Positions 49 through 25,992 are shown, numbered from the stretch's first letter. The stretch is DNA of 32,000 bases from Candidatus Pelagibacter ubique HTCC1062 (GCF_000012345.1 NC_007205.1:1200001-1232000); one strand, 5' to 3'. The notes: a model not told the origin generated them from the sequence alone. Numbers and translations: made by a program.

Positions 49-1242
49 TTAAACTAAGTTTGTTGCAACCCATTTATGAAATTCATGTGTAGGGTTATCC
101 ATTATCGGTGAAAAATTCCCACCATTATATACTGGTGAATTTCTACCTTCTTGCATACCCTCAATAGCTTTTATATCCTCAATCATTACTTCCTTCCAAA
201 ATTCTGCATTTTTTTTTCTCATCTCAGTAAACTCAGAACCATTTGCACTATCATCACCAACATAATACATCGTTAAATGTTCTTTAGTCTCACTAAAAGA
301 CTTAGGTTCTAACCAAAAAACATAAAAATGGTCTACATGAAGACCAATCATTACATTTGGAAATAAAGCGATATACTCAGCTTTTTTGAATAAGTCTTTA
401 GGCCAATTTGGAAAATTATTGAAACTTTGATTTCCTTTAACAGGTTGATCATATTTATTTGTTCCTTGGCCAGCAAATCTATTTGGTAAACCTTGAATAT
501 GGTAATGATCACTAATATTTGAAACTTTATTTAATTCAGGATGTATCCAAGGCAAGTGATAACTTTCACAGTAATTCTCTATTGCAAACTTCCAATTACA
601 CTTAACATCAAGACTGAAGTATCCATGATCTTTTGAGTGCTTAAGTAATTTTTGATCTTCCTTAGATATAAATTTTGACCATCTTTCTTCGAGAGGCTTG
701 ATATATTCATCAAACTCTAATTCATTACTATTTATATTGATAAATATTATATCCATCCAAATTTTGGTTTTAACCTCTTTTAAATTGCTCGATGATTTAT
801 CGAATTTTTCTGTCTCATGAACATTTAGGCCTCCTATGTGAGGTGTCGCAACCAACTTTCCATCAAAATCGTAGGACCAGGAGTGGTATGGACATCTTAA
901 GACATTTTTCAAAGCACAAGGCTCATCTAAAAGCTTGAAGCCTCTATGGCTGCAGACATTGTGAAATACCCTTATTTTTTTCTCTTTATCTCTTAAAATA
1001 ATAAGAGGGATGCCTAGTAAATTATAAGGTTGAGCATCTCCTACATTTGGCACAGAACTTCCAACGCCAATCACCGTCCATTTATCCTTGAAAATCCTCT
1101 CTCTTTCAATGCTTAGATAGTCAGAGCTAGTGTAGCACTCGTTTGGTAGGCCATGGGCTTTCTCGATGGGGTTCCCAACCACTCTAATTTTTTCCAAGTC
1201 CAAGATTTTCGAAAGTTGAAGATTTTTAAGATTTTCAGACAT
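49..1242 (-). CDS. Rieske [2Fe-2S] non-heme iron oxygenase, alpha (catalytic) subunit
   Basis: 397-aa ORF. Rieske motif C-x-H-x17-C-x2-H (CSHRGFKLLDEPCALKNVLRCPYH). Downstream mononuclear-iron region ENYCESYHLPWIH (H-x4-H). Size is typical of GbcA/CntA/stachydrine-demethylase-type and ring-hydroxylating alpha subunits. Confidence 0.85.
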   Translation of the reverse strand: MSENLKNLQLSKILDLEKIRVVGNPIEKAHGLPNECYTSSDYLSIERERIFKDKWTVIGVGSSVPNVGDAQPYNLLGIPLIILRDKEKKIRVFHNVCSHRGFKLLDEPCALKNVLRCPYHSWSYDFDGKLVATPHIGGLNVHETEKFDKSSSNLKEVKTKIWMDIIFININSNELEFDEYIKPLEERWSKFISKEDQKLLKHSKDHGYFSLDVKCNWKFAIENYCESYHLPWIHPELNKVSNISDHYHIQGLPNRFAGQGTNKYDQPVKGNQSFNNFPNWPKDLFKKAEYIALFPNVMIGLHVDHFYVFWLEPKSFSETKEHLTMYYVGDDSANGSEFTEMRKKNAEFWKEVMIEDIKAIEGMQEGRNSPVYNGGNFSPIMDNPTHEFHKWVATNLV

Positions 1243-1342: not shown

Positions 1343-2071
1343 ATGAATTTTTCACTTGAGGTTGGACCTCAAACAGATCTTAATACACTGCCTCCCGTTA
1401 AGGATGTTTATGTAACTATGCTTCCAGGAGGAGACTATAAAGAGACAGCTAACCAAACAGCGGCGTTAGTTAAAAAAGGATTTAATCCAGTTCCACATTT
1501 TCCAGCACGATCAATTACGGATGATGCTCAGCTTAAAGATTACATTGTAAGATGTAAAGATGTGGGTGCTAAACAAGCTTTAGTTATTGGAGGAAGTAGA
1601 GAGCCAGTTGGAAAATTTGATAGTTCAATTCAAATTTTAGAAACAGGATTTTTTGATGGAATTAAAATAGGAATAGCAGGACATCCAGAGGGAAGTCAGG
1701 ATATTTCTGATAAAGAATTAGAAAAGGCTATGATAGATAAAAAACCTTACGCCGACTATATAGTGACCCAGTGGTTATTAGAGAGTCAACCTATCGTAGA
1801 TTTCATTTCTAAGCAGTCAGTACCAGTGCATGTAGGAATTACTGGGCCAATGAAAATAACTAGCTTAATTAAATTTGCTAATATTGTCGGGGCGAAAAAT
1901 TCTATAAATTTTCTTAAGTCTAATTTTAGTAAGGCATTAGATTTATTGAAACCTAAAGACCCTAATGAATTAATTGGGAAAGTGAAAGAGTTTACTGGTA
2001 ACTTCCACATTTATACATTCGGCGGCTTGAAGGAAACAAACAAGTGGTTGAAGGAGAACGGTTATGTCTAA
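1343..2071 (+). CDS. Methylenetetrahydrofolate reductase (MetF)-family protein, short form
   Basis: 242-aa ORF with AGGAAA 5 nt upstream of the ATG. By-eye colinearity with E. coli MetF blocks: FSLEVGPQT~SFEFFPPRT, PVPHFPARS~AAPHLTCID, ALVIGGS~IVALRGD, IAGHPEG~AAYPEVHPE, IVTQWLL~AITQFFF, FHIYTFG~FHFYTLN. Confidence 0.8.
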   Translation: MNFSLEVGPQTDLNTLPPVKDVYVTMLPGGDYKETANQTAALVKKGFNPVPHFPARSITDDAQLKDYIVRCKDVGAKQALVIGGSREPVGKFDSSIQILETGFFDGIKIGIAGHPEGSQDISDKELEKAMIDKKPYADYIVTQWLLESQPIVDFISKQSVPVHVGITGPMKITSLIKFANIVGAKNSINFLKSNFSKALDLLKPKDPNELIGKVKEFTGNFHIYTFGGLKETNKWLKENGYV

Positions 2072-3461: not shown

Positions 3462-3572
3462 ATGACAAAATCATTCCTAATCGTAATTTGCATAATAATA
3501 ATAATTGCTTTAATACTCTTTCCACTATTTGTTTCTTACAAAGCTCAGAAAAATAGTAAAAAAAATAAATAA
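3462..3572 (+). CDS. Unannotated 36-aa hydrophobic micro-protein (single predicted TM helix, basic tail)
   Basis: Hand translation gives MTKSFLIVICIIIIIALILFPLFVSYKAQKNSKKNK. Its TAA (3570-3572) overlaps the ATG (3572-3574) of the next gene as TAATG. It is below the length cutoff of the ORF track. Confidence 0.4.
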   Translation: MTKSFLIVICIIIIIALILFPLFVSYKAQKNSKKNK

Positions 3573-4117
3573 TGTTTGGTCAATTTTTAAATATAGTTGT
3601 TCGGTCTATTAAATTAGATAAATCTCTTTACAAAGATAATAAGAACTTTGGTGAAGCTGCAATATATTTTGCAGGCCTTATCATGATACTAGACGGGCTA
3701 GCAGGAGCTGTTGCAGCAAACACTGTTATTAAAACTGCTGTTGCAATGTCTGGTTTAACTGCCATTCTTACTTGGTTTGTATGGGGACTATTTATTTATG
3801 TGATCGGTGTAAAATTATTTCCAGATAAAGATACTAAAGTTTCATTTAAAAAAGTTTTAACAGCTGTTGGGTTTGCTCATGCACCAGGGCTTTTAAGATT
3901 TTTTGCTGTAACACCAGATTTAATGATCCCAATTATATTTTTAACTCAGTTCTGGATATTTGCTGGATTAATCATTTCAACAAAACAAGTTTTAAATCTA
4001 AAGTCTAATTTTAAATCATTTGGAATAGTCTTTTTAGCTTTTTTAATAATTGCTTTTCTTTCAATATCTTTTGTAATGAGCAAAATGAATGCTTTGCCTA
4101 TAAGCAATATCAGTTAA
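3572..4117 (+). CDS. Multi-pass inner-membrane protein, Yip1-domain-like
   Basis: 181-aa ORF with about five hydrophobic segments (for example AAIYFAGLIMILDGLAGAVAA, LTAILTWFVWGLFIYVIGV, FGIVFLAFLIIAFLSISFV). Size and topology resemble bacterial Yip1-family proteins; family assignment is from memory only. Confidence 0.55.
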   Translation: MFGQFLNIVVRSIKLDKSLYKDNKNFGEAAIYFAGLIMILDGLAGAVAANTVIKTAVAMSGLTAILTWFVWGLFIYVIGVKLFPDKDTKVSFKKVLTAVGFAHAPGLLRFFAVTPDLMIPIIFLTQFWIFAGLIISTKQVLNLKSNFKSFGIVFLAFLIIAFLSISFVMSKMNALPISNIS

Positions 4118-4284
4118 ATTGGAAATATAGTTTTTGAAAGCTTACAAGAATTACAGGTTTTAAATCCTGTTAAAATTAAATTTTGAGAAACACTCGGGTC
4201 TTCTTTTTTACACTCTTCACAAAAATTATCTAATTGAAGAACTTCTTCATCATTATTATCTTGATCATTAAAGTCTTTAGTCAT
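4114..4284 (-). CDS. Small 4-Cys zinc-ribbon protein with acidic N-terminus (56 aa)
   Basis: The track ORF 4114..4311 begins with GTG. The internal ATG at 4284 overlaps the upstream stop as ATGACTAA (4277-4284). Sequence MTKDFNDQDNNDEEVLQLDNFCEECKKEDPSVSQNLILTGFKTCNSCKL carries CxxC-x18-CxxC. Without this ORF there would be an unusually long 159-bp non-coding gap in this compact region. Confidence 0.45.
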   Translation of the reverse strand: MTKDFNDQDNNDEEVLQLDNFCEECKKEDPSVSQNLILTGFKTCNSCKLSKTIFPI

Positions 4285-4888
4285 TATCAGTAAGGCCAGC
4301 TCCTGCTCCACCTTGTTTTAAGCTTTCATTTTCTTCAACAAACGTTTCTTCTGAAAGCTTATAAAGCTCATTCCATTCTTTTTCTTCAAACGAGTCTCTG
4401 TTTTCTAAAACTTTTAAATAAATATTTTCAGCAGATTCAATAATTTCGTTTTTAGTGTAATTAGAATAAATATTATTATTAAAGTTTAATAAAAACTCCC
4501 TGTCATCCATTTTTAAGAATATTCTTTTACCGATTACCTCAGCTGCTCTACTTACAAATGGTAGGAAAAGTAATGGATATGAGACTTTTTTAAACGTTAT
4601 CTCATTTAAAGTTTCTAGAGTTTTAATCTGATCTAAAAAATTTACCCCTGCGATTATTGGGCAATATTCATTTTTACCAGCCTCATTGTCTTGCTTTATG
4701 ATGCTGATATTCTCTAACCTTATTTCTTTTTTTTTCTTAAAAAAACTATTTAAGTTTTTAATTCCAGGCAAACTAAAAATTTCGAGTAGTCTTATATTTT
4801 TTCCAATCTCTTCTGCAATCCCCCATGAATATCCTGCAGCTCTACTTGATCTTTTAGAAACTGTATCTATTTCGCTTAATGATCTCAT
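4277..4888 (-). CDS. Hypothetical protein, 203 aa (possibly a DUF3726-type family; unverified recollection)
   Basis: ATG lies 5 nt after the stop of the upstream 550-aa ORF. N-terminal block SLSEIDTVSKRSSRAAGYSWGIAEEIG and Gly-rich acidic tail GGAGAGLTDND. No catalytic motif recognised. Confidence 0.6.
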   Translation of the reverse strand: MRSLSEIDTVSKRSSRAAGYSWGIAEEIGKNIRLLEIFSLPGIKNLNSFFKKKKEIRLENISIIKQDNEAGKNEYCPIIAGVNFLDQIKTLETLNEITFKKVSYPLLFLPFVSRAAEVIGKRIFLKMDDREFLLNFNNNIYSNYTKNEIIESAENIYLKVLENRDSFEEKEWNELYKLSEETFVEENESLKQGGAGAGLTDND

Positions 4889-4893
4889 GATGA

Positions 4894-6546
4894 TTAATTA
4901 TAAACCCAATGTTCATCATAGTTTTTTAATTGCTCTGGTAGGGGTGCTCCTTGAAACATACATATTCTTAGCCACTTATCAGAACGTGGATCAAATTTTA
5001 ATGCTCCAAAAAAAGATAATTTTAGTCTCAACATATCAATAGGCATTATTTCTTGGCCAATAGTATTGTCTTGTATTTCAGAATAAGGAAATTTCTCTAC
5101 TATAAATGCTCTTCTTACAACGTGTCTTAACTCATTATTGGTTGATAAAAATTTAGCAATAGTCCAACTATTTTTAGCAACCGTTAACGATTCATAAAGT
5201 TTTTTAATATCTCTTGCAATTGCTAAGGGTTGCTCTAACTCAGCACCCACTTCATCAAATCTATTTGCTAGTCTTGGTTCCTCTTTATTTTTTGAGATAA
5301 ACCAAAAATTTAAATTATTTTCATCTTTGGTAAAATCTATTGTTAAGATATCTGGATATTTTTTTTCTAAAATTAGCTTTAAGTCTTCTACCGTTCGCTC
5401 AGTTGGAATATTGAAATATTTTTCTTCTTCAGAGCTCATTTCTTTAATTAATGGAGACGTTATATCATCATAAGGTTCCATCATCATTGAGACGACATAT
5501 TCAATGCATTCTTCACAATATTTTTTTTCTAAATACAGATATAATTCGTTAAAGGCATAATCTTGCTCAAAATTAAATTCATTATCTAGATAGACAATAA
5601 ATTCATTAAGATCTTTCAATAAAGATTTAATCTTATTTATTTGATATTCACTTTCAGTATTCCAAGAAGTGATATTCTTTATTGATTTTTTTAAACATTC
5701 TAAAAATAAGTTTTTATCTTTCTCTGATATTGTTTTTATCTCTCTTATTTTTTTTAAAGAAATTTCTCTTGCTGAAATCCAGTTATTTAAAAGAGTTGGA
5801 TGATTAACAATAAATGGCGCCATTCCAAGACCTGTAGAATTTCCTATTCCTAAACCTTTACAAATATTTATATCAAGATTTACAGCTTTTTTTGGATTCT
5901 TACTTTTTGCAACGTGATTAACTTGATCAAAAGTAAATTGTCTTACCAGATAAACCAACATCATTTCCAATCTAAATGGACCATATATTTCTTCTCGGTC
6001 TTTAATTCTAAATCTGTCTGCTAAGCCAAATTTACCTGACCCATAAACTGCTGTGGTTCTATATAAATAACCAACACTAGTTAACAAATCATTATCAGGC
6101 TGCTTACCTTCGCTTAAACATTCAACCACATGATTGAAAACTCTTACTGATTTATTAGCTCTTGAAAGAGTTAATTCTTTATAAGAAAGTCTGCCAAATT
6201 CTTGTTTGGGTACTTCGTTTTTTAATCTTTCAATATCTTGTTTTTTTGGAACACCATCAAAAAGTGTGAAGGCTGCATCCCATTTGGTAGCTATAACTCT
6301 ATCTGATCTTTCATTATCATCTAATTCATTTGCAAAACAAATTAATGAATACACTCTATTTTTTTTCTTAAATGAATAAACTGCAGTACCATAGCCATGT
6401 TCGTTTAATTCAAATAAATCTCTTTTGTAATTCCAATCCTTAAACTCTTTTAAAAAACTTCTTAAAAATGAAAGTTTAGATTGATGAAAAGATCCAAGTC
6501 TTGATAGCTTCATTACTACATTGGGATCTCTTAAAGAAATATTCAT
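4894..6546 (-). CDS. Hypothetical protein, 550 aa, no recognisable family
   Basis: Long uninterrupted frame in AT-rich DNA, where random frames close quickly. Its ATG overlaps the upstream stop as ATGA (6543-6546). I saw no P-loop, classical Rossmann GxGxxG or HExxH. Notable blocks: GLGIGNSTGLGMAPFIVNHP and a single CEEC. Confidence 0.75.
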   Translation of the reverse strand: MNISLRDPNVVMKLSRLGSFHQSKLSFLRSFLKEFKDWNYKRDLFELNEHGYGTAVYSFKKKNRVYSLICFANELDDNERSDRVIATKWDAAFTLFDGVPKKQDIERLKNEVPKQEFGRLSYKELTLSRANKSVRVFNHVVECLSEGKQPDNDLLTSVGYLYRTTAVYGSGKFGLADRFRIKDREEIYGPFRLEMMLVYLVRQFTFDQVNHVAKSKNPKKAVNLDINICKGLGIGNSTGLGMAPFIVNHPTLLNNWISAREISLKKIREIKTISEKDKNLFLECLKKSIKNITSWNTESEYQINKIKSLLKDLNEFIVYLDNEFNFEQDYAFNELYLYLEKKYCEECIEYVVSMMMEPYDDITSPLIKEMSSEEEKYFNIPTERTVEDLKLILEKKYPDILTIDFTKDENNLNFWFISKNKEEPRLANRFDEVGAELEQPLAIARDIKKLYESLTVAKNSWTIAKFLSTNNELRHVVRRAFIVEKFPYSEIQDNTIGQEIMPIDMLRLKLSFFGALKFDPRSDKWLRICMFQGAPLPEQLKNYDEHWVYN

Positions 6547-7514
6547 TGATTCATTTCTTTGTAAAAATTGTACCAGTTGTTTCCAAGAATTCCATTTACT
6601 TCACTTTCTGAAAAACCAACTTTTTTAAGTCCTATCTCTAAGTTTTCAAATCCTCTTGCATCTAAAAACCAATCAGGTTGTTTTGGAAAACCAGGTTTGT
6701 TTTTAGACCCTTCTCCATAATTTTTGCTTTTAGTCCAAGTACCATTTCTCATCCACTCAACAATAGTATCTGGTTGGTTTAAACAAAGATCTGAACCTAT
6801 TCCAATTTTTTCAACTCCCATAATCTCAGCAGTCTTAGCTGTCATTTCACAAAAGCTTTCCAAAGAACAATCTGTTCCATCTTTTAAATGATGAGGATAT
6901 AAAGATAGACCCAACATTCCTTTGTGTTTGGATAAAATTTTTAATAGTTCGTTTGATTTGTTTCTCTTAGCTGGGTGCCAAAATGATGGATTTGCATGAG
7001 TTATTGCAATTGGTTTTTCACTTATCTCAATTGCATCAATTGTACTTTTTTCTGCTGAATGAGACATGTCTATTACAAGACCTAATCTATTCATCTCTTT
7101 AATTACCTCTTTACCAAAATTAGTAACCCCACTATCTATTGCTTCATAACATCCCGTCGCTAGTAAGGACTGATTATTATAAGTAAGCTGCATAAACCTA
7201 CATCCTAAATCATAAACTTTTTCAACCAATCCAATATCATCTTCTATAGGTGAACAATTTTGAAAACCAAAAAAAACTGCAGTTTTATTTTCAGATTTAG
7301 CTTTTTCAATATCTTTAAAACTTTTACCGTGAAAAATTAAGTCGGAATTTTCTGAAAAGTGATTTTCCCAATTTTTTAATACCGTTTTTAGCTCATCAAA
7401 ATCTTCGTGGTAAACAATAGTTACATGGATTGCATCCAGTCCTGCTTGTTTATTGATCTGAAAAATTTCTCTAGACCAGTTACAATATTGTAAATTATCA
7501 ATTTTAAAATTCAT
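6543..7514 (-). CDS. Peptidase M19 (renal/membrane dipeptidase)-fold amidohydrolase, atypical metal site
   Basis: Blocks match renal dipeptidase by eye: FGKEVIKEMNRLGLVIDMSHSA, KPIAITHANP...RNK, IGIGSDL, NGILGNNWYNFY. I prefer the ATG at 7514 (MNFKIDNLQY) over the TTG at 7544 given in the track. Confidence 0.8.
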   Translation of the reverse strand: MNFKIDNLQYCNWSREIFQINKQAGLDAIHVTIVYHEDFDELKTVLKNWENHFSENSDLIFHGKSFKDIEKAKSENKTAVFFGFQNCSPIEDDIGLVEKVYDLGCRFMQLTYNNQSLLATGCYEAIDSGVTNFGKEVIKEMNRLGLVIDMSHSAEKSTIDAIEISEKPIAITHANPSFWHPAKRNKSNELLKILSKHKGMLGLSLYPHHLKDGTDCSLESFCEMTAKTAEIMGVEKIGIGSDLCLNQPDTIVEWMRNGTWTKSKNYGEGSKNKPGFPKQPDWFLDARGFENLEIGLKKVGFSESEVNGILGNNWYNFYKEMNQ

Positions 7515-7628
7515 TGTGATCTTCTTTGTTTTAAAGAATACCAATAAGATAGATAAATTCTATTAATTTTATTGAAATTTTAGGCTTAATTTGAAATAAC
7601 AATTTACGTTAGAATAAAATTACAACAA

Positions 7629-12014: not shown

Positions 12015-12455
12015 ATGAATATAAAAGTCAAAAAACCATATGTTATATATATGGCTGAAATTATTTACTCCTACGTTTCTATTGAAAAGAATAAAGATCC
12101 GGAGCTTGATGTAAAACAAGCTATTAATAAATTCATGGAAACTAATGAATTTATAAAATTAAGCACTGGTGCATTACATGACGAATGGTTTGGTGAATTA
12201 AAAAAAAATGAGTATCTAGACAAAGATACTGGAAATAAAATACCAGATGAAACCATTAAACTTTTAGAAATTCAAAAAGATATGACTATTAAAAATTTAA
12301 TTAAAATTCCTAAACTTTACGAGACTGAAAACAATACTCTCATCGAAGCATCAAATAGAGCACAACAATTTTTATGGCGTATGTGTGAAAGTTATGAACT
12401 GTGGTGTAAAGAAACTGGGCAATCAGAGCAGCTATTATTGGGTATTACTGATTAG
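12015..12455 (+). CDS. Hypothetical protein, 146 aa
   Basis: ORF starts 3 nt after the racemase stop and is soluble and charged with no recognised motif. Its 3' end overlaps the convergent lipoprotein gene by 11 nt. Confidence 0.5.
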   Translation: MNIKVKKPYVIYMAEIIYSYVSIEKNKDPELDVKQAINKFMETNEFIKLSTGALHDEWFGELKKNEYLDKDTGNKIPDETIKLLEIQKDMTIKNLIKIPKLYETENNTLIEASNRAQQFLWRMCESYELWCKETGQSEQLLLGITD

Positions 12456-12756
12456 CTAATTGAATAATTTTACTTGTTTTTTCTATTCTACTTTTTACTA
12501 AAGCAAAAAACTCTTCTTGACTTTCTTCTTCTTCAACTTTTAATTTTTTATCATCTACAAAGCTTTTAATATTTTCAGTAGGAGACTTACCGGTAATTTC
12601 TTTAACTGCTTGATTAGAACCATATGAAAGGCCAGCTTGATAGATATTACCAGAACTAGCTAATGTATAAGCAGGTCCTAATAAGGCTGCACTTTGCACA
12701 CAACCATTAAGAAAAAATAGCAAAAATAATCCAGCAAATATCTTTTTTAAAATCAT
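12445..12756 (-). CDS. Putative lipoprotein (about 103 aa)
   Basis: MILKKIFAGLFLLFFLNGCVQSA is a signal peptide with a lipobox-like L-N-G-C. I chose the internal ATG at 12756 over the track start at 12798. The C-terminal half is acidic. Confidence 0.55.
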   Translation of the reverse strand: MILKKIFAGLFLLFFLNGCVQSAALLGPAYTLASSGNIYQAGLSYGSNQAVKEITGKSPTENIKSFVDDKKLKVEEEESQEEFFALVKSRIEKTSKIIQLANQ

Positions 12757-12815
12757 TATACTCCCACTTAATCCTAAGTATTTAAAAGCACAACTCAAGA
12801 GAGAAAGTGTTCATT

Positions 12816-13721: not shown

Positions 13722-14309
13722 TTAAATTCCTTTATAACCAAATTCTAAGCAAGCATCAGTAATTGAATGATAAAAAGATTCTCCAAAACTTCTTAATGTA
13801 AATATTCTAACTTTATCTGGATTGTCATCTAGCATATCAATTGTAACTGACATTCCGTTATAAATTGAATTTAAACAAGTATCTTTTTTCAATTCATTAA
13901 AATTAAAAGGGCATCCTTTTTTTAATATCTCTTTTGTATTTTTTCCCTCTATTTGAATTATCGCTCTGCTATGAGATATATTTGTTATGGCAAAATCTGT
14001 TTCTGGTAATTTTTCGTTAATTTCTTTTAAAATTTCTTTTTTTGAAGAAACTAAAAGCCAGTTATTTGGTCCATTCCATAAAATTCTTGTATTGGTGTTA
14101 CAGCTTATATTTAGAGTTTCATTTTTTAAGTTCAAATCATCTAACTTAATATTTTCAATAGTTATTGCTGAACTATTATACTTAACAATTTGAATGATTA
14201 GATAATCGCTTAATTCGCTTATTTTTAACAGTTCTTTATCATTTTTTCCTTCATGATCACCAAACAAACCTTTGATATGAATATTCTTTAAAGCAGAAAT
14301 TGAACTCAT
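13722..14309 (-). CDS. soxG: Sarcosine oxidase gamma subunit
   Basis: 195-aa ORF overlapping the soxA stop by 4 nt. It is the last gene of the canonical soxB-D-A-G order with the expected size. Sequence alone is weakly diagnostic. Confidence 0.75.
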   Translation of the reverse strand: MSSISALKNIHIKGLFGDHEGKNDKELLKISELSDYLIIQIVKYNSSAITIENIKLDDLNLKNETLNISCNTNTRILWNGPNNWLLVSSKKEILKEINEKLPETDFAITNISHSRAIIQIEGKNTKEILKKGCPFNFNELKKDTCLNSIYNGMSVTIDMLDDNPDKVRIFTLRSFGESFYHSITDACLEFGYKGI

Positions 14310-17302
14310 GATCTTACTCTTTCACCTTTTGGATCAACATAATGGGATGAAACAATCTCAACTGGTATTGTTTTATTTTTTAAAGGTGACATTGCAAATA
14401 GTTTTTGCCCTATCATATTTTTTCCATCCTTAAGAATTGCTAGTGAAAATGGATTATCGTATTCAACACTCCAACAAGATGCAGAAATATATCCTAATTT
14501 AGGGTTTGGTGTTGGAGCCATTGCATCTTTAACTAAATGAGACCCTTCTGGGATACTTGTTTTCTTATCAATTGGAACAACCCCTACTACTTTTTGTCTA
14601 TCTTCAGCTATAAATGCTTCTCTTTCTAATGAACGCTTTCCTATAAAATCTTTCTTTTTACTAACAAGTCCTTCTAAAGAGTTATCATAAGGAATGGTTC
14701 TGCCATCAAGTTCTGATCCTGCAATGTGACCCATTTCAATTCTTAGAGTTGATAATGCTTCAGTGCCGTAAGGTTGAATTTTAAATTCTTGTCCTACTTC
14801 CATTATCTTCTCCCACATAAAATTTCCATTGTCAGATTCGACATTAACCTCATAAGCAAGCTCTCCTGAAAATGAGATTCTAAAAATTCGTGCGTGAACT
14901 CCAAATAAATCAGCTTCTAAATATCCCATAAAAGGTAACCCTTCATTTGAAGCATCAATATTTGGAAATAATTTTTGTAATAAATCTCTAGATTTTGGCC
15001 CAGCAATTGCAGCTCCTGCCCATTGCTCTGTAGTTGAAACCACATTTACATTTAGTTCTGGCCATACAAGTTGTAGATAATATTCAAGATGAGATAAAAC
15101 ATTTGCTGCTTGTGCTGTTGTTGTTGTCATATGATAATGGTTTTCAGAAATTCTCGTTGTTGTTCCATCATCCATAACAATTCCATCTTCTCTTAACATT
15201 ACACCATACCTTGCTTTACCAACTGGCAGTTTTAACCAAGCATTAGTGTAAACTCTATTTAGTAGCTCTGCTGCATCAGGTCCTTTAATGTCAATTTTAC
15301 CTAAAGTAGTTACGTCACAAACACCTACATTTGTTCTAACATTTTTAGCTTCTCTTTTTGAACCTTCAAATAAAGTTTCTTCTCCAATTTTATAATATCT
15401 TGGTCTCAACCAAACACCTGCGTCCACAAACACAGCATTATTTTTTTCATGCCAAGTGTGCATTGGTGATTTTCTTGTTGGTTTTGAATGTTTACCAACT
15501 TCTCTTCCAACAATTGCACCAATTGTAACTGGTGTATACGGAGGTCTAAAAGTTGTATGACCTACTTCTGGCACTATTTTATTTTCAATGTTTGAAACTA
15601 GCTGCAAACCGTTGAGATTACTTGTTTTTCCTTGGTCTGTGGCCATTCCTAGTGTCGTATATCTTTTTACATGTTCTATGGATCGATATCCTTCTTTTAG
15701 TGCAATTTCTACATCTGAAACAGCTACATCGTTTTGAAAATCTAAAAATCTTTTATATGTTTTTCCTTTAGGCAAAGGCACACACCAAAATTTATCATGT
15801 GTGGTAGATTTTTTTTCCATAACTGTTGGCGATGATGTTTTGTTATCATTATTAGTAATTTTTTTTGAAAGTTCATATCCAGTTTCAAATGAACTTTTTA
15901 AAGTTTCTTCTAATGTAAAAGTTCCATTTGCTGCACCTAAAGTTGTTTCATTTTGTTTTGATAATCCAGGTACAAATGCATCTATATCCTTATTAAAAGT
16001 AGTTTTATTTCCTGATTGAGAAGCTAAATGTATTGTTGGTGTCCAAAAACCTGAAACACAAATGCAATCACAATTGATATTTTCTAAAGTTCCTAGTTCA
16101 TTTTTATCATCTGAAATTTTTGCAACTTCAGCTGATTTAACTTTTTTATACCCTTTTGCAGCAACTACTACGTAAGAAAATTTAATTTCAATATCTAGTT
16201 TTTTTGCTTCATCTATAATTTCTGACTTTGGTTCTTTTCTTGTATCTAAAATAATTGGATCAACACCATTTATTTTAAACTCTATAGCCGTTTCATATCC
16301 GCTATCATTATTGGTAAATATTAAAGGTTTTTTACCAACTAACACTCCATAAACTTTTAAATATTCTTTTGCTGCAGAAGACAGCATCACACCTGGTGTA
16401 TCATTATTTCCAAATACTAAAGGTCTTTCAATTGATCCTGATGAAATTAAAACTTCTTTTGCTCTAATATACCAAAGTCTTTGTTTTGGATTGTATTTTT
16501 TAGTTTTAGGTAAGTGATCACTTAATTTTTCTGACATGACTAACATATTGTGATCATAGTAACCAAATACTTGAGATCTATTTTTAACAATAACATTAGG
16601 CATTTCTTTAAGTTCAGAAATAATATTTTCTGCCCATTCTTTTCCTGTTTGATTTCCAATATTAACCTCGCTAGTTAATAAAGTTCCACCAAATCTAGGC
16701 TTGTCTTCTGCTAAAATTACTCTTGCTCCATTTTTAGCAGCAGCATATGCACTTGCTAAGCCAGAGGGTCCTGAACCTGCAATTAACAAATCACAATACT
16801 CATATTTATGTTCATATCTTTCCTTGTCATGCTCAATTGATGCAACCCCAAGTCCTGCTGCTTTTCTTATAAATGGCTCATAAACTTTGTACCAAAAACT
16901 TTTTGGCCACATAAACGTTTTGTAATAAAATCCTGCTGGAAGAAATATTTTTAACAAATTGTTGATAGCACCAATATCAAAATTAACACTTGGCCAACAA
17001 TTTACACTTGTTGCTTCCAAACCTTCAAAGAGCTCTTGTTCTGTAGCTTTTACATTCGGTTCAGTTTCATTATTTCTGTATAATTGAACAATTGCATATG
17101 GCTCATCTACACCTGCACCAAAAAAACCTCTGGGTCTATGATATTTAAAGCTTCTTCCTATTAAATGAACTCCATTAGCAAGTAATGCTGAAGCTAAGGT
17201 ATCTCCCTCGTAACCAAAGTAAGTTACTCCATTAAACTTAAATGAGATTTTTTTATCTCTATTTATTAATCCAACATTATCTAATCTATAATTTTGTGTC
17301 AT
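14306..17302 (-). CDS. soxA: Sarcosine oxidase alpha subunit
   Basis: 998-aa ORF with a dinucleotide-binding block DLLIAGSGPSGLASAYAAAKNG and a C-terminal GcvT-like THF-binding domain (ISFSGELAYEV). Length and position match heterotetrameric SoxA. Confidence 0.92.
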   Translation of the reverse strand: MTQNYRLDNVGLINRDKKISFKFNGVTYFGYEGDTLASALLANGVHLIGRSFKYHRPRGFFGAGVDEPYAIVQLYRNNETEPNVKATEQELFEGLEATSVNCWPSVNFDIGAINNLLKIFLPAGFYYKTFMWPKSFWYKVYEPFIRKAAGLGVASIEHDKERYEHKYEYCDLLIAGSGPSGLASAYAAAKNGARVILAEDKPRFGGTLLTSEVNIGNQTGKEWAENIISELKEMPNVIVKNRSQVFGYYDHNMLVMSEKLSDHLPKTKKYNPKQRLWYIRAKEVLISSGSIERPLVFGNNDTPGVMLSSAAKEYLKVYGVLVGKKPLIFTNNDSGYETAIEFKINGVDPIILDTRKEPKSEIIDEAKKLDIEIKFSYVVVAAKGYKKVKSAEVAKISDDKNELGTLENINCDCICVSGFWTPTIHLASQSGNKTTFNKDIDAFVPGLSKQNETTLGAANGTFTLEETLKSSFETGYELSKKITNNDNKTSSPTVMEKKSTTHDKFWCVPLPKGKTYKRFLDFQNDVAVSDVEIALKEGYRSIEHVKRYTTLGMATDQGKTSNLNGLQLVSNIENKIVPEVGHTTFRPPYTPVTIGAIVGREVGKHSKPTRKSPMHTWHEKNNAVFVDAGVWLRPRYYKIGEETLFEGSKREAKNVRTNVGVCDVTTLGKIDIKGPDAAELLNRVYTNAWLKLPVGKARYGVMLREDGIVMDDGTTTRISENHYHMTTTTAQAANVLSHLEYYLQLVWPELNVNVVSTTEQWAGAAIAGPKSRDLLQKLFPNIDASNEGLPFMGYLEADLFGVHARIFRISFSGELAYEVNVESDNGNFMWEKIMEVGQEFKIQPYGTEALSTLRIEMGHIAGSELDGRTIPYDNSLEGLVSKKKDFIGKRSLEREAFIAEDRQKVVGVVPIDKKTSIPEGSHLVKDAMAPTPNPKLGYISASCWSVEYDNPFSLAILKDGKNMIGQKLFAMSPLKNKTIPVEIVSSHYVDPKGERVRS

Positions 17303-17303
17303 A

Positions 17304-17570
17304 TTAAATATCTTCGCTAGCTTTAACGGTTTTAAATATTTCGTGAGTTGCAGTGTCTCTTTCTATTTTAATCCACTGTCTGCATCCTGATATATGTTGC
17401 CATAGCTCTTTGTGTTTTCCTCTTAAACTTTTTCTATTATAAACAAAATTATCCCAATCTTGATCTGAAACTTCTTTATTAAGTTCTGGTCTTTTAACGG
17501 TTGCATCACCACCGTATGAAAATTCATTTTGAGATCTCATCCCACAGTGAGGACATTTAATATGAAGCAT
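17304..17570 (-). CDS. soxD: Sarcosine oxidase delta subunit
   Basis: 88-aa ORF starting MLHIKCPHCGMRSQNEFSYGGDA, with the Cys/His zinc motif typical of SoxD. It lies between soxB and soxA. Confidence 0.9.
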   Translation of the reverse strand: MLHIKCPHCGMRSQNEFSYGGDATVKRPELNKEVSDQDWDNFVYNRKSLRGKHKELWQHISGCRQWIKIERDTATHEIFKTVKASEDI

Positions 17571-18827
17571 TTATGAAATCCACGTTTTAGTTCCAAGTCC
17601 TTTTTCATCTAATAAGTGACCTGTGTGAAATCTATTTAAACTATATCCAGCATTTAATTTGTGAACTCTATCTTGTGCAATTGTATGTGCAAATGTCCAT
17701 CCTGATGCTGGTGTTGCTTTAAATCCACCATAACACCATCCACAATTTAAATATAATCCTTCAATATGAGTTTTATCTATTATAGGTGAGCCGTCCATAG
17801 ACATATCCATTATCCCACCCCAAGTTCGAAGCATTTTTAGTTTGCTAAGAAAAGGCATCATCGCAATTCCTTCAGTTAAAACATGTTGAAGGGTTGGAAG
17901 GTTTCCTCTTTGCGCATAGCTATTATAGCCATCCAAATCTCCTCCCATTACCATCTCACCTTTATCCGACTGACTAATATAAAAGTGTCCTGCACCAAAA
18001 GTTACAACTTTATCTAAAACAGGTTTAACTGGTTCTGAAACACAAGCTTGTAAAAGATGTGTTTCAATTGGTACTGTCATATTTAATTTCTCTGCTAAAA
18101 TATTTGTACTACCTGCAACACACAGTCCAATTTTTTTAACTTTAATATCTCCTCGTGAAGTTCTAACTCCTTGAATTTTTCCACCTACAACATCAAAACC
18201 TGTTACTTCACAATTTTGAATAATATCTACACCCATTGAATCTGCTTGACGTGCATAACCCCATGCAACAGCATCATGCCTTGCTGTTCCAGCGCTTGGT
18301 TGCATCAGTCCACCAAATATAGGAAACCTTACATTGTCTGAAAAGTCAGCCATTGGAATAATTTCTTTTACCTCTTCTCTATTTAATAAAACTGCATCGA
18401 TACCATTTAATCGCATTGAGTTTCCTCTCCTTGCGAAAACATTCATCTGGGCATCTGAGTGAGCAAGGTTAATAATTCCTCTTGGAGAAAACATTACATT
18501 GTAGTTTAAATCCTGGCTCATCTTTCTCCACAAATCCATTCCAAACTCACTGAACAATGCATTATCGTCATGCATGTAGTTTGATCTAATGATTGTGGTA
18601 TTTCTTCCAACATTTCCACCCCCGATCCAACCTTTTTCAATGATAGCAACGTTTGTAATATTGTGCTCTTTAGCTAAATAATAAGCAGTTGCTAGGCCGT
18701 GACCACCTCCACCAATTATAACCACATCATATTCTTTTTTAGGAGTTGGATCTTTCCAGGCCAAATCCCAATTTTGATGACCAGAGAAGGCATTTTTGAT
18801 CAAATTAAATATAGAATATTTTTGCAT
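17571..18827 (-). CDS. soxB: Sarcosine oxidase beta subunit (FAD/FMN flavoprotein)
   Basis: 418-aa ORF with FAD fold YDVVIIGGGGHGLATAYYLA. It is the first gene of the soxBDAG order and abuts soxD with no gap. Confidence 0.92.
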   Translation of the reverse strand: MQKYSIFNLIKNAFSGHQNWDLAWKDPTPKKEYDVVIIGGGGHGLATAYYLAKEHNITNVAIIEKGWIGGGNVGRNTTIIRSNYMHDDNALFSEFGMDLWRKMSQDLNYNVMFSPRGIINLAHSDAQMNVFARRGNSMRLNGIDAVLLNREEVKEIIPMADFSDNVRFPIFGGLMQPSAGTARHDAVAWGYARQADSMGVDIIQNCEVTGFDVVGGKIQGVRTSRGDIKVKKIGLCVAGSTNILAEKLNMTVPIETHLLQACVSEPVKPVLDKVVTFGAGHFYISQSDKGEMVMGGDLDGYNSYAQRGNLPTLQHVLTEGIAMMPFLSKLKMLRTWGGIMDMSMDGSPIIDKTHIEGLYLNCGWCYGGFKATPASGWTFAHTIAQDRVHKLNAGYSLNRFHTGHLLDEKGLGTKTWIS

Positions 18828-18953: not shown

Positions 18954-20639
18954 ATGAGCGAAGTTAAGTCAGACATTCAAATAGCTAGAGAAGCTAAAAT
19001 GCAACCTATAAATGATATTTTAGCCAAGATAAATGTGCCTGATGAAAGCTCAGCTTTTAGTCCAATGGGAAGACACATAGCAAAGATTAATTTAGAATAT
19101 TTAGATACTTTAAAAGATAAACCAAATGGAAAACTTGTATTAGTGACAGCAATCACTCCTACACCAGCTGGTGAAGGAAAAACCACAACTTCAGTTGGTT
19201 TAAATGATGGATTAAACAAAATTGGAAAAAAATCTATTGTTTGTTTAAGAGAGCCAAGCCTTGGTCCCTCTTTTGGAATGAAAGGTGGAGCAGCAGGTGG
19301 CGGTTATGCTCAAGTAGTTCCAATGGAACAAATTAATTTACATTTTACTGGAGATTTTCATGCAATAACATCAGCTCATAATTTGTTGTCAGCCTTAATT
19401 GATAATCATATCTATTGGGGAAATAAACTAGATATCGATGTTAGAAGAATTGTCTGGAAAAGAGTAATGGATATGAACGATCGTTCTTTAAGATCTATAA
19501 ATATAAACTTAGGTGGAGTTGCAAATGGTTTTCCAAGAGAAGATGGTTTTGATATTACTGTTGCATCTGAAATCATGGCAATCTTTTGCTTATCAAATGA
19601 TTTAGAAGATTTAGAAAAGAGAATAGGAAATATTACAATTGCTTATACTAGAGATAAAAAACCTGTTTATGCTAAAGATTTAAAAGCACAAGGTCCAATG
19701 ACAGTATTATTAAAAGATGCAATTCGACCTAACGTTACTCAAACTTTAGAAAATAATCCTGCAATTATTCATGGTGGCCCTTTTGCTAACATTGCTCATG
19801 GCTGTAATTCTGTAATTGCAACAAAGACTGGACTAAAACTTGCTGACTATGTTGTGACAGAAGCAGGATTTGGCGCAGACCTTGGTGCAGAAAAATTCCT
19901 TGATATTAAATGTAGAAAATCAGATTTAAAACCTAGCTGTGTTGTAATTGTTGCAACTATTAGAGCATTAAAAATGCATGGTGGTGTAGCAAAAGATGAT
20001 CTTAAAACAGAAAATGTAGAAGCCTTAAAAAAAGGTCTAGTTAACCTTCAAAGACATGTAGAAAATGTAAAAAAATTTGGTTTGCCAGTTGCAGTAGCTG
20101 TTAATCATTTTATTAAAGATACAGAGAATGAAGTAAAAGCTTTGATAGAATTTTGTGACACTATTGGAGTTAAAGCAAGTCTTTGTACTCATTGGGCAAA
20201 TGGTGGCGAAGGTACAAAAGAACTTGCAAGTCATGTTGCTGAATTATGTGAGAAAAATGAGGATAAATTCAAATTCTTATATGAAAGTAAAACTCCTCTA
20301 TTTAAAAAAATAGAAACAATTGCAAAAGAAATTTATAGAGCAGATGAGGTTATTGCAGATACTAAAATAAGAGATCAATTAAAAAGCTTTGAAGATGCTG
20401 GATATGGTGACTTTCCAATTTGTATTGCAAAAACTCAATACAGCTTCTCAACAGATCCAAGCTTAAAAGGTGCACCAACAGGACACTCTTTACCAATTAG
20501 GGAGATTAAACTTTCTTCTGGTGCAGAGTTTATTGTTGTTATATGTGGAGCCGTTATGACAATGCCTGGGTTACCAAGAGTTCCAGCGGCAGATTCAATT
20601 AAGCTAAATAAAGATGGTGAAATTGAAGGTCTATTTTAG
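18954..20639 (+). CDS. fhs: Formate-tetrahydrofolate ligase
   Basis: 561-aa ORF with AGGAG upstream of the ATG, the hallmark P-loop region [16 protein letters not shown], and full-length colinearity with FTHFS. Confidence 0.95.
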
Positions 20640-20642
20640 AAA

Positions 20643-21434
20643 CTAGTTACGCAGATAATTAAGCCAGTTTCTAACTTCACATGTTCTGTCATTAAAATCT
20701 AATAGTTCGTTTTGAGATTTTATGTATGAGATATGACTTTCATACTCTTCTTCATTTAAAAAATTTTTATTTACAAATAGTCGTTCTTTACGACCTTCAA
20801 TAAGTTTAAGCATCTGAAAGTACTCATAATCAGGATGATACTGTAAGCCAATAATTTCAGAGTTTCCCGCTCTAAAACTAACACCCATTACATTGTTAAC
20901 TTTATCACTTGATAGAAGAATAGCATTTTCCGGTAATTCACTTACTTCATCAAAATTAAATGCTGGTGATGTAAAAATTTTTTTCTTATCTTTGTAAATA
21001 AAATGCTTCTCACCTTCATTATTAATAATTACATCTGATGCAATTCCAATGTGAGCACCATTTTTACCAGGGTTTACCTTGCCTCCAGCTGCTGTAGAAC
21101 AAACTTGTAATCCCCAACAAATAGCTAAAATCTTCTTTTTTTGAGTAAAACAATTTGATGCAAAATTAATATGTTTCTTAATCACATCCGTCATATCATT
21201 TATTCGCATTGCACCACCCGTAAAGACAATACCATTATATTTACTCATGTCTTTTAGAGCATTCGTAGTCTCATCATCATTACCAGGATTTATAATTTCA
21301 GTAATTGCAGATGGTTCTATTTTTAAGATTAAATTTTTTAAATTATCTGCTGCAGAAGCTCCAGCTGCTTTAATAAAAAACTCACTATCTTCTCTAATAT
21401 TTCCTTCAACAATTAAAATATTTAAATCACTCAT
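20643..21434 (-). CDS. Class I glutamine amidotransferase-like protein
   Basis: 263-aa ORF with nucleophile elbow ILAICWGLQV and a downstream His (LQYHPDYE). Its ATG overlaps the Fe-ADH stop as ATGA (21431-21434). Confidence 0.75.
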   Translation of the reverse strand: MSDLNILIVEGNIREDSEFFIKAAGASAADNLKNLILKIEPSAITEIINPGNDDETTNALKDMSKYNGIVFTGGAMRINDMTDVIKKHINFASNCFTQKKKILAICWGLQVCSTAAGGKVNPGKNGAHIGIASDVIINNEGEKHFIYKDKKKIFTSPAFNFDEVSELPENAILLSSDKVNNVMGVSFRAGNSEIIGLQYHPDYEYFQMLKLIEGRKERLFVNKNFLNEEEYESHISYIKSQNELLDFNDRTCEVRNWLNYLRN

Positions 21435-22597
21435 TTAAACAATTCACCTGTCATACTGTTCTGGTACATTATCCTCATATCATCCTCAGTTAATTTTTTT
21501 GGATTTCCTCCAGTAGATGGGTCTGCTAAAGCCATTTTTGATAATCTATCAATATCAAAATCTTTTTCATCAATCACTTCTGATAATTTATGAGGCATAT
21601 CAAGTTTTTTTCTTAAATCTAAAACCCAGTTAACAAAACCATCAAAAGATCTGTCTTTAAGTTCTAAATAGTCACAAATTTTAATTATCTTATTTTCAAT
21701 TACATCTTTGTTGAAAGTTAACACGTAAGGCATAAATATTGCATTAGATAAACCGTGATGAATATTATTTAATGCATTGACAGGGTGACTTAGAGAATGA
21801 ATTGCTCCTAGTCCTTTTTGAAATGCAGTTGAGCCCATACTAGCTGCTGTTAACATATTCATTCTTGCTTCAATATTAGATCCATTGCTAACAGCTTCTA
21901 ATAGCCACTTATCAATTAATCTCATTCCTTCTAAAGCAATTCCATCTGCCATCGGATGATAGCCTGGTGCACAATAGGCTTCTAAATTATGTGCTAGTGC
22001 ATCCATTCCAGTTGCTGCAGTCATTTTTGCTGGTAATCCAACTGTTAAAATTGGATCTAAAATAACTATTGATGGTAAAAATTTTGGATGAAAAATAATA
22101 TTTTTCACGCCTGTTTCTTCATTTAATATTACTGATGCTCTGCCAGTTTCAGAACCAGTGCCCGCAGTAGTAGGTACTGCAATAATGGGAGCAATCTTAT
22201 CAGAGTTTGCTTTAGTCCAATTATCTCCAACATCTTCGAAATCCCAAATAGGTAGATTTTGACCTGACATAAAAGCAACTGCTTTACCAACATCTAAACC
22301 ACTACCACCTCCAAACGCAATAACACCATCACAATTGTTTTTTTTATAATAATCAGCACCTTCATTAACATTCGTGCCAGTTGGGTTACCAACAACATTT
22401 GAATATAATGCTGCAATAATTCCACCCTCTTTTAAAATCGATAAAGTGTTTTTAACAATAACTGATTGAGCTAATCCATTATCAGTAACAAGCAGTGGCT
22501 TTTTAATGTTTAAATTTTTACATGCTGAAGCAACATCATTAATTCTATTTTCACCTACCCACATTGTAGTAGGATAATTCCAGTTGTATTTTTGCAT
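21431..22597 (-). CDS. Iron-containing (type III) alcohol dehydrogenase
   Basis: Contains GGGSGLDVGKA (GGGSxxD) and His-rich metal motifs (DALAHNLE, AIHSLSHP...HHGLSNA). The ATG at 22597 (MQKYNWNYPTTMWVGE) fits family N-termini better than the GTG at 22639 in the track. Confidence 0.85.
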   Translation of the reverse strand: MQKYNWNYPTTMWVGENRINDVASACKNLNIKKPLLVTDNGLAQSVIVKNTLSILKEGGIIAALYSNVVGNPTGTNVNEGADYYKKNNCDGVIAFGGGSGLDVGKAVAFMSGQNLPIWDFEDVGDNWTKANSDKIAPIIAVPTTAGTGSETGRASVILNEETGVKNIIFHPKFLPSIVILDPILTVGLPAKMTAATGMDALAHNLEAYCAPGYHPMADGIALEGMRLIDKWLLEAVSNGSNIEARMNMLTAASMGSTAFQKGLGAIHSLSHPVNALNNIHHGLSNAIFMPYVLTFNKDVIENKIIKICDYLELKDRSFDGFVNWVLDLRKKLDMPHKLSEVIDEKDFDIDRLSKMALADPSTGGNPKKLTEDDMRIMYQNSMTGELFK

Positions 22598-22668
22598 ATT
22601 ATGTTTTAGTGTTTTATAAAGTTGGTTGATGTATATCACTTTCTAAAATAATTTTAACCGAAATATTT

Positions 22669-24045: not shown

Positions 24046-24046
24046 A

Positions 24047-24802
24047 ATGAAATTAAATTTTAAAGGTAAAACTGCTGTAATCACTGGTGCAAGTGGTGGT
24101 ATGGGTTTAGAGATGTCAAAAAAACTATCTCAAAACAATATTTCAGTTTTAATGTTAGATTTAAAAAGTCCTAGTAAAGAATTTTTAGATAATAATAAAA
24201 AATGTGAATTTAAAAAAGTTGATGTAACTAATTTTAATAAATTGAAAGTATATATCGATAATTTTTATAAAAAACACAAAAGATTAGACTACCTAGTTAA
24301 TACAACTGGTGTTCTTTGGTTTGATAAAGATGTCTCAGCAGTAAATATAGATTCTAATGTATGGGATAAAGTTTTTGAAATAAATTTAAAATCTATGATG
24401 TATCTTTCAAAAATTATTGTACCTAAAATGATTAAAAATAAATTTGGTTCAATGGTGCATATATCTTCCATTGATGCATTATCTGGTGATGACAAACCTC
24501 AAGACGCTTATGGTGCTTCAAAAGCAGCAATGATTAGACTTTCAAAGTCCTTTGCCATTCAATTTGCATCTAACAAAATTAGATCAAATATAATCTTACC
24601 TGGGCCAATAGATACGGGTATGCAGATTAGATGGAAAAAAAATCCTAATACAAAGAAAAATTTAGAAAAATTTATTCCTTTAAATAAAGTAGGTAAACCC
24701 GAAGATATTTCAAATGCTTCTTTATTCCTATTAAGTGATCAAGCAGATTATATTACTGGAACTGAATTGATTGTTGATGGGGGTCTTACGGCTAAGCCGT
24801 AG
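24047..24802 (+). CDS. Short-chain dehydrogenase/reductase (SDR)
   Basis: 251-aa ORF with cofactor motif TGASGGMG and the catalytic S...YGASK (YxxxK) block. It starts 1 nt after the ALDH stop. Confidence 0.9.
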   Translation: MKLNFKGKTAVITGASGGMGLEMSKKLSQNNISVLMLDLKSPSKEFLDNNKKCEFKKVDVTNFNKLKVYIDNFYKKHKRLDYLVNTTGVLWFDKDVSAVNIDSNVWDKVFEINLKSMMYLSKIIVPKMIKNKFGSMVHISSIDALSGDDKPQDAYGASKAAMIRLSKSFAIQFASNKIRSNIILPGPIDTGMQIRWKKNPNTKKNLEKFIPLNKVGKPEDISNASLFLLSDQADYITGTELIVDGGLTAKP

Positions 24803-24810
24803 TTATTAAC

Positions 24811-24840
24811 TTTAGGCGCCTCTTTCTTGAGGCGCCTAAA
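24811..24840. terminator. Perfect 12-bp GC-rich hairpin between convergent genes (candidate bidirectional terminator)
   Basis: TTTAGGCGCCTC (24811-24822), loop TTTCTT, GAGGCGCCTAAA (24829-24840). It sits exactly between the SDR stop (24802) and the TRAP binding-protein stop (24850). It is the most GC-rich local element I saw. There is no long U-tract beyond the TTT/AAA stem ends. Confidence 0.55.
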
Positions 24841-24849
24841 AAATATTAA

Positions 24850-25926: not shown

Positions 25927-25964
25927 TAACTCTCCCTATTAGTTAAAAAGTATTTTTAAACCCT

Positions 25965-25992
25965 ATTATAAAAAAAATTATGATTAAACCAA
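25965..25992 (-). promoter_or_regulatory. Candidate internal promoter for the TRAP binding-protein gene
   Basis: On the minus strand: TTGGTT (25992..25987), 16-nt spacer, perfect TATAAT (25970..25965). It lies inside the only sizeable gap of the operon (25927-26063), about 35 nt upstream of the SD/ATG. Confidence 0.3.

Follow-up and report, generated by a model that had tools for sequence, protein, structure and literature searches.

Here, we analysed a stretch of 32,000 nt from the genome of Candidatus Pelagibacter ubique HTCC1062 (GCF_000012345.1 NC_007205.1:1200001-1232000; low G+C content of about 30%), in the following referred to as the window. Four consecutive open reading frames (ORFs), all located on the minus strand and spanning positions 7514-4114, encode an amidohydrolase of the Peptidase_M19 fold, a protein of 550 aa, a DUF3726 protein of 203 aa and an acidic micro-protein of 56 aa; purE and purK are their divergent neighbours (Table 1). 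An earlier note, based on the sequence alone, had described these ORFs as tightly joined and transcribed divergently from purEK, and the three junctions it listed were all found in place: the first two genes overlap by ATGA (6543-6546), the second and third are separated by a 5-nt gap (TCATC, 4889-4893) and the third and fourth meet in ATGACTAA (4277-4284). As judged from the sequence comparisons described below, the block very likely represents the SAR11 version of the homarine catabolic operon, i.e., homC-homB-homA followed by a lineage-specific gene of the zinc-ribbon type, and these gene names are used throughout.

The four genes are predicted to form one co-transcribed, translationally coupled unit with an mRNA starting in the purE-divergent promoter region, which agrees with the coupling proposed earlier, with the verified junctions and with the conserved gene order. 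The spacer between homC and purE presumably holds the promoters of both genes and also AAAGAAG as the ribosome-binding site of homC. Sites resembling the promoter consensus were found on either strand of this spacer (7566-7620), at a frequency no higher than in shuffled sequence, and the sites returned by a terminator scan were no commoner than in shuffled sequence either. An Rfam scan of the window matched neither a riboswitch nor any other RNA family.

For the comparison of gene order, the window proteins were searched by tblastn against 84 loci, 72 of them SAR11-type. Every one of the 72 SAR11-type loci kept the order M19, 550-aa and DUF3726 gene on one strand (a single locus begins within the 550-aa gene, so that its M19 side is not visible), and so did most other taxa, including Rhodobacterales, Vibrio, Arcobacter, Mesorhizobium, Aminobacter and others. 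Throughout the loci compared, the DUF3726 gene directly followed the 550-aa gene. The recurrence of this arrangement is far beyond chance, and the look at gene order in relatives suggested by the earlier note thus revealed conservation both within SAR11 and across phyla. In genomes other than SAR11, these three genes form part of a fixed cluster consisting of a LysR regulator, an aldehyde dehydrogenase (ALDH), the M19 protein, a BCCT transporter, the 550-aa and the DUF3726 protein and often an Ldh_2 protein, as found in Ruegeria sp. TM1040, Vibrio, Arcobacter, Phaeobacter, Aminobacter and Mesorhizobium; in the Aminobacter cluster, the BCCT gene is replaced by a glycine-betaine-type ABC transporter.

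In March 2026, homABCDER together with the transporter gene homT were described as the operon for catabolism of homarine (N-methylpicolinate), arranged in Cobetia sp. OBi1 in the order homE-A-B-T-C-D-R (ACFLL8_11490-11520) and represented in R. pomeroyi DSS-3 by SPO3188-3192 (Ferrer-Gonzalez et al., Nat Microbiol 2026; PMC13236597). The seven-gene cluster found outside SAR11 is the mirror image of the Cobetia order and the operon was reported to occur in SAR11; the window genes are therefore read as homC, homB and homA. In that study, homA and homB measure about 700 and 1,700 nt and are adjacent in 97.7% of 11,755 genomes, homC is predicted to encode a peptidase, homD (SPO3191) encodes an aldehyde dehydrogenase, homT lies between homB and homC, and the auxiliary homE is found beside homA or homD (Ferrer-Gonzalez et al., 2026). 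The core genes of the window share both this adjacency and these sizes, a peptidase-like homC is likewise nearby, here overlapping the start of homB, and their relatives outside SAR11 share the wider architecture, which also matches SPO3188-3192. Mutants in homB, homC, homD and homR lost growth on homarine; moreover, the operon was reported in all 120 listed Pelagibacter genomes, none of them with homE, and in SAR116, and Pelagibacter homB transcripts track the homarine concentration at sea (Ferrer-Gonzalez et al., 2026). SAR116 was recovered in our family search as well; cluster look-ups for the 550-aa family led to Arcobacter, SAR116 and Sporosarcina, and Cobetia was not among them.

On the protein level, comparison of the window with the clusters of Ruegeria TM1040, Phaeobacter and Vibrio, which have an identical seven-gene layout, gave identities of 37-49% for HomB, 55-60% for HomC and 15-29% for HomA. 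The HomB values of 46-49% refer to the roseobacter-cluster "hypothetical protein" encoded between M19/BCCT and DUF3726, and counterparts in two Candidatus Pelagibacter genomes were 96-97% identical to the 550-aa window protein. The earlier note had considered the 550- and 203-aa proteins as orphans and the block as an undescribed enzyme system. Instead, they belong to a family of 1,385 clusters at 50% identity and to DUF3726, respectively, and the block has a gene-for-gene match in an operon that is already known and was published with its presence in SAR11. Homology of the two proteins to families of established function was what the note had named as speaking against its proposal, and the match to the hom families essentially amounts to such homology. 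Only four points are left as new, namely the micro-protein confined to SAR11, the absence of homD, homR and homT, the changed HomC metal site and the apparently unprecedented fold of HomB/HomA.

A paralogous HomAB/M19 system acting on another N-heterocyclic or quaternary-amine solute (e.g., trigonelline, picolinate or another pyridinium betaine) would offer a different explanation of the gene order. In fact, a clearly different operon type exists in S. meliloti pSymB, Bosea and Alloyangia. It comprises an IclR regulator, a HomB-like protein, a HomA-like protein of 230-240 aa with a long acidic tail, an M19 protein and an ABC transporter, continues with an aminotransferase or Rid and a flavin adenine dinucleotide (FAD) oxidoreductase, and its substrate is probably another N-heterocyclic solute. 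Its HomB and HomC are only 24-26% and about 40% identical to the SAR11 proteins, making substrate diversity within the HomB family plausible, and the window itself lacks homD, homR and homT and carries an extra gene. However, the SAR11 proteins are nearer to the hom type (46-49% for HomB and about 60% for HomC) than to this second type, the canonical order ALDH-M19-HomB-HomA is kept in deep-branching SAR11-like loci, and Pelagibacter genes and transcripts were assigned to hom (Ferrer-Gonzalez et al., 2026). We therefore regard a paralogous system with another substrate as unlikely.

The first gene product had been described as an atypical M19-fold hydrolase, which is borne out by a match to Peptidase_M19 with 231 bits (cut-off 26) in combination with altered metal ligands. 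HomC is 55-60% identical to the M19 proteins of the Ruegeria, Phaeobacter, Vibrio and Arcobacter clusters, and its nearest solved structure, 2I5G, is deposited as "amidohydrolase" and aligns over the full length. With M19 dipeptidases (human DPEP1, 1ITQ; Sco3058, 3ID7) and 2I5G, it has in common the TIM-barrel amidohydrolase fold and two His and an Asp of the active site (H152, H173 and D242 in HomC). Of the five metal ligands canonical for M19, however, three are missing, namely the HxD pair and the bridging Glu: thirteen diverse members of the HomC subfamily feature an invariant D-x-L and Q-N where canonical M19 enzymes have H-x-D and E-G. Alignment to 3ID7 and 5LX0 places the invariant Gln (Q85) at the position of the bridging Glu, while D6-x-L8 presumably occupies the HxD position, the alignments to canonical enzymes stopping short of the N-terminus. 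By its sequence, HomC belongs to a distinct, divergent M19 subfamily, and the replacement of HxD by D-x-L and of Glu by Gln makes a canonical binuclear zinc site unlikely for HomC and 2I5G alike.

These features also bear on the suggestion of the earlier note that the block encodes a hydrolase complex for peptide- or amide-like solutes, such as dipeptides, N-acyl or gamma-glutamyl compounds. The M19 fold of the first gene product is in line with this idea, and amide hydrolysis is plausible within the homarine pathway, too. Nevertheless, the metal site of canonical dipeptidases has not been preserved, conserved partner genes code for an ALDH, a BCCT or betaine-type transporter and an Ldh_2 reductase instead of peptide transporters, and genetics in two organisms link the cluster to homarine (Ferrer-Gonzalez et al., 2026). 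A peptide-directed function is consequently very improbable in our view. Of the earlier proposal, the part that stands is a catabolic system for a small nitrogenous solute, with a methylated pyridinium carboxylate in place of a peptide as the substrate; in contrast to the M19 dipeptidases and their dipeptide substrates, HomC probably acts on an N-formyl or other small amide.

An M19 gene with the altered ligand pattern of HomC also leads the dimethylglycine (dgc) operon of Pseudomonas, Vibrio natriegens and Ralstonia, which serves the catabolism of an N-methylated solute. Hence, the block could be an accessory module of dimethylglycine/sarcosine catabolism, comparable to PA5396, which heads the dgc operon arranged as PA5396-PA5397-dgcA-dgcB in Pseudomonas and has counterparts in Vibrio and Ralstonia. 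The M19 subfamily is common to both systems, 2I5G resembles the dgc-operon type and is very similar in sequence to the M19 protein heading the Ralstonia dgc operon, and the window has sox-type genes at a distance of 6 kb. In dgc operons, however, the M19 gene precedes genes for a V4R-domain protein and DgcAB/EtfAB, not HomB/HomA, dgcAB are absent from the window, and the dgc-type M19 protein is about 30% identical to HomC as compared to about 60% for the hom type. Such an accessory role is thus hardly credible. That PA5397 might be a DUF3726 protein was considered and rejected: its counterpart in Ralstonia has a V4R domain, and no HomB is encoded there. The Ralstonia megaplasmid locus carries the order glyA, M19, V4R-domain protein, dgcA, dgcB and etfAB.

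Returning to the homarine operon, HomB is presumed to be the catalytic partner of HomA in ring opening. HomB had no match in Pfam, NCBIfam or the PDB sequences, and profile searches of the PDB sequences with HomB and HomA remained empty. An exhaustive HMMER search yielded the 1,385 cluster representatives of the HomB family, many of which are 760-960 aa long. Several of the long forms carry a C-terminal DUF3726 and hence represent natural HomB-HomA fusions (e.g., 814 aa in Mesorhizobium, 804 aa in Arcobacter and many metagenomic proteins). The AlphaFold2 model of HomB was of very high confidence (predicted local distance difference test, pLDDT, 93.9; predicted template modelling score, pTM, 0.93), and Foldseek found no match to it in the PDB better than E 0.6 and a TM-score of about 0.1. 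Scattered matches to kinase/APH and START-like folds were judged as noise. A natural fusion was modelled with a pTM of 0.89 despite a disordered linker of 30 residues, again with no Foldseek match in the PDB. Together with the occurrence of natural fusions, this model supports a fixed HomA-HomB complex, for which an AlphaFold heterodimer with ipTM+pTM (interface pTM plus pTM) of 0.92-0.95 was reported (Ferrer-Gonzalez et al., 2026).

The 203-aa protein, vaguely associated with a DUF family before, is a DUF3726 protein (E 1.8e-31, 108 bits with a cut-off of 22.1, residues 2-73), and the 550-aa protein was left without a Pfam or NCBIfam family or a PDB fold. For the latter, the statement that no motif is recognisable needs correction: an invariant GxGxxG-like loop is present (YGSGKFG, residues 168-174). 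Conserved HomB loops read RTTAVYGxGKFG and LGIGNxTGLGMAPF and are accompanied by many invariant Arg residues. The motifs listed for HomA and the micro-protein (SLSEI...AAGYSWGIAEE, the tail GGAGAGLTDND and CEEC-x18-CNSC) were recovered as described, and both the N-terminal block of HomA and its tail GAGAGxxDND are conserved. A literature search for DUF3726 gave nothing informative. The N-terminal half of HomA could be aligned in register with the N-terminus of the neighbouring Ldh_2 proteins (HomE; Table 1 and relatives), with an hhalign E-value of 0.0075 and a probability of 5%; lacking Foldseek support, a remote relationship is possible but weak, and the idea that DUF3726 is a truncated Ldh_2 domain stays unproven. 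A word-index search with the 550-aa protein retrieved solely near-identical SAR11 proteins named "hypothetical" or "FlaG/YvyC". No support was found for the database names of HomB homologues, i.e., "uncharacterized FlaG/YvyC family protein" (SAR11, several from JGI), "Zorya protein" (roseobacter, UniRef) and "Restriction endonuclease" (Sporosarcina, UniRef).

Labelled homarine was converted to N-methylglutamate, N-methylglutamine and glutamate as well as to features of the formulas C7H9NO5, C6H9NO4 and C6H9NO3; the hom genes are required for the conversion of homarine to N-methylglutamate, in which the N-methyl group is retained, and N-methylglutamate dehydrogenase (mgdABCD) finally demethylates N-methylglutamate to glutamate (Ferrer-Gonzalez et al., 2026). 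Combining these formulas with knowledge of the enzyme families, we propose the following steps. HomAB would dearomatise the pyridinium ring and open it between C5 and C6, giving N-formyl-N-methyl dehydroglutamate semialdehyde (C7H9NO4), which an aldehyde dehydrogenase (HomD elsewhere; not encoded beside the operon in the SAR11 lineage of the window) would oxidise to C7H9NO5. Subsequently, HomC could remove the N-formyl group as formate, leaving C6H9NO4, an N-methyl enamine or imine of 2-oxoglutarate, and reduction of the latter, where present by HomE (an Ldh_2/DpkA-like imine reductase), would yield N-methylglutamate. The deformylated semialdehyde, either as such or in cyclic form, may account for C6H9NO3. 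The mass balance fits the published formulas (C7H9NO5 + H2O = HCOOH + C6H9NO4; C6H9NO4 + 2H = N-methylglutamate).

Formate and the methyl group would be passed on to nearby genes of one-carbon (C1) metabolism, i.e., to formate-tetrahydrofolate ligase and the sox/mgd-type cluster. Both are encoded in the window, which suits the disposal of these two products, and the neighbourhood is devoted to methylated amines, as the earlier note had recognised. Such sox clusters are often misannotated versions of mgdABCD, the final enzyme of homarine catabolism (Ferrer-Gonzalez et al., 2026). In its logic, the proposed route resembles the trigonelline pathway TgnAB-C-D-E of Acinetobacter, where an N-methylpyridinium carboxylate ring is opened with retention of the N-methyl group, followed by aldehyde oxidation and amide hydrolysis.

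Several points weigh against the assignment of the block to homarine. To our knowledge, homarine use has been demonstrated by nobody for any SAR11 culture. Orthology to the tested genes (SPO3188-3190, ACFLL8_11495-11510) is indicated by architecture and intermediates, not by direct comparison, and strain DSS-3 was absent from the best 120 matches of searches seeded with a Ruegeria-type HomB. Neither a HomD-type ALDH nor a LysR regulator or BCCT transporter was found within 10 kb in the window and 59 related SAR11 loci, nor does a LysR or BCCT gene occur anywhere else in the window, and the model organisms cannot grow on homarine without homD and homR (Ferrer-Gonzalez et al., 2026). The step assignments of HomC, HomD and HomE are our own, and the missing M19 metal ligands leave the chemistry of HomC uncertain. 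Furthermore, HomA and HomB were likened to the flavin pair TgnAB (Ferrer-Gonzalez et al., 2026), an analogy without support on the level of sequence or fold: we found no flavin-binding Pfam domain and no PDB match to a flavin reductase or monooxygenase, and HomA/HomB resemble no solved flavin reductase or two-component monooxygenase. HomAB may still be a functional analogue of TgnAB.

Regarding the missing genes, homE, too, is absent within 10 kb of the window operon, and the only ALDH of the window lies 15 kb away and is 27% identical to HomD-type ALDHs. A HomD-type ALDH directly upstream of the M19 gene was found solely in deep-branching SAR11-like loci (L066 and L070-73), with 53-59% identity to the ALDH of Ruegeria TM1040. 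By keeping the order ALDH-M19-HomB-HomA, these loci link the layout of the window to the canonical one. In L063-67, an unrelated ALDH gene (32% identity) is located downstream of homA in convergent orientation. Convergent to the window operon lies the gene of a 181-aa hydrophobic, apparently membrane-spanning protein matching no Pfam family, whose stop codon and that of the zinc-ribbon gene overlap by 4 nt. Most SAR11 loci have this gene at the same position (70-88% identity), and, as homT is absent, its product might be a candidate transporter.

A second difference to the published hom operon is the conserved 56-aa four-Cys gene that is coupled to homA in the window. This gene is present in 59 of the 72 SAR11-type loci and always overlaps the homA stop; the loci lacking it are listed in Table 1. 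The four Cys residues and the tail of its core, C(D/E)EC-x18-CxSC...SKTxFP, are invariant, and the acidic N-terminus is variable. With a median ratio of nonsynonymous to synonymous substitution rates (dN/dS) of 0.10 and variation residing mostly in third codon positions (entropy 0.44/0.18/0.99 for the three positions), the ORF is a genuine gene that evolves under purifying selection. None of the non-SAR11 loci compared contained it, also when small ORFs after homA were considered, and it never occurred together with a cluster-linked ALDH gene in the loci compared. Moreover, the ribbon motif was not encountered among 408 family proteins, either separately or as a fusion to the HomB family.

The micro-protein itself matched no Pfam family and only reached sub-threshold matches in NCBIfam to the Trm112, DksA/TraR and L33 ribbons. 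The Gly/Pro context of rubredoxins (CxxCG...CPxCG) is absent; the description as a four-Cys ribbon given before agrees with the four invariant Cys residues and their 18-residue spacer. It is not mentioned in the main text of the homarine study (Ferrer-Gonzalez et al., 2026). Its most likely role would be that of a small subunit with accessory function in the HomAB(C) complex of SAR11. A more far-reaching scenario, which we raise tentatively and consider doubtful as a whole, would combine two features. HomAB would be a pyridinium ring-opening enzyme on a fold without a solved relative, and its chemistry may be new, as no flavin or metal site is recognisable. In the dominant SAR11 lineages, the system would have been streamlined to homCBA and a dedicated four-Cys micro-protein. 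The latter would be a third, obligatory subunit or else a small iron/zinc redox or assembly factor, and would let the pathway run without cluster-encoded HomD and HomR, which are essential otherwise.

Homarine is a phytoplankton metabolite present at millimolar levels, and SAR11 bacteria make up about a quarter of ocean cells. If assigned correctly, the operon is therefore a genuine path along which carbon, nitrogen and C1 units flow, a point that has already been published. For annotation, the identification implies that the names HomC, HomB and HomA can be given to the proteins listed by thousands of SAR11 contigs as M19 "dipeptidase", "hypothetical protein" and "DUF3726", respectively.

Table 1. 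Features of the window and of the loci compared; numbers preceded by L designate comparison loci.
Feature	Position	Strand	Remarks
homC, M19-fold amidohydrolase, 323 aa	6543-7514	-	ATG at 7514; mechanical ORF reaches further upstream, to TTG at 7544; PF01244
homB, 550 aa, 1,653 nt	4894-6546	-	family without library annotation
homA, DUF3726, 203 aa, 612 nt	4277-4888	-	PF12525
56-aa acidic CxxC-x18-CxxC zinc-ribbon-type micro-protein	4114-4284	-	from ATG; given in the ORF list as 4114-4311, from upstream GTG
homC-purE intergenic region, 114 nt, AT-rich	7515-7628	.	divergent spacer
181-aa hydrophobic protein	3572-4117	+	
Rieske/ring-hydroxylating oxygenase	49-1242	-	
242-aa protein	1343-2071		no Pfam family
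GCV_T aminomethyltransferase, 452 aa	2064-3422		
146-aa protein	12015-12455	+	no Pfam family
117-aa protein	12445-12798	-	no Pfam family
soxB-soxD-soxA-soxG-type cluster (418, 88, 998, 195 aa)	13722-18827	-	about 6 kb from the hom genes
Methylated-amine/C1 island	18954-31992		
ALDH	22669-24045		sole ALDH of the window
FMO-type monooxygenase	29162-30538		
Second operon type, S. meliloti pSymB	L003 7223-16854		
Second operon type, Bosea	L087 9223-17183		
Second operon type, Alloyangia	L088 4866-14516		
dgc operon, Ralstonia megaplasmid	L089 6666-15631		
Ldh_2 (HomE) compared with DUF3726	L001 11406-12413		
SAR11-type loci without zinc-ribbon gene (n=13)	L007-L009, L063-L067, L070-L073, L075		

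Apart from the hom genes, the window contains further genes (Table 1). The Rieske oxygenase gene is followed by that of the 242-aa protein, which overlaps the GCV_T gene by 8 nt, and this trio is kept beside the hom genes in most SAR11 loci. The ORFs for the 146- and 117-aa proteins are located between the genes of an Asp/Glu racemase and an EamA transporter. The methylated-amine/C1 island comprises formate-tetrahydrofolate ligase, a class-I amidotransferase, an iron-type alcohol dehydrogenase, an ALDH, a short-chain dehydrogenase/reductase, a TRAP transporter (DctPQM), a glycerol-3-phosphate dehydrogenase-like gene, an ABC permease and a flavin-containing monooxygenase (FMO)-type gene, which possibly encodes a trimethylamine monooxygenase.

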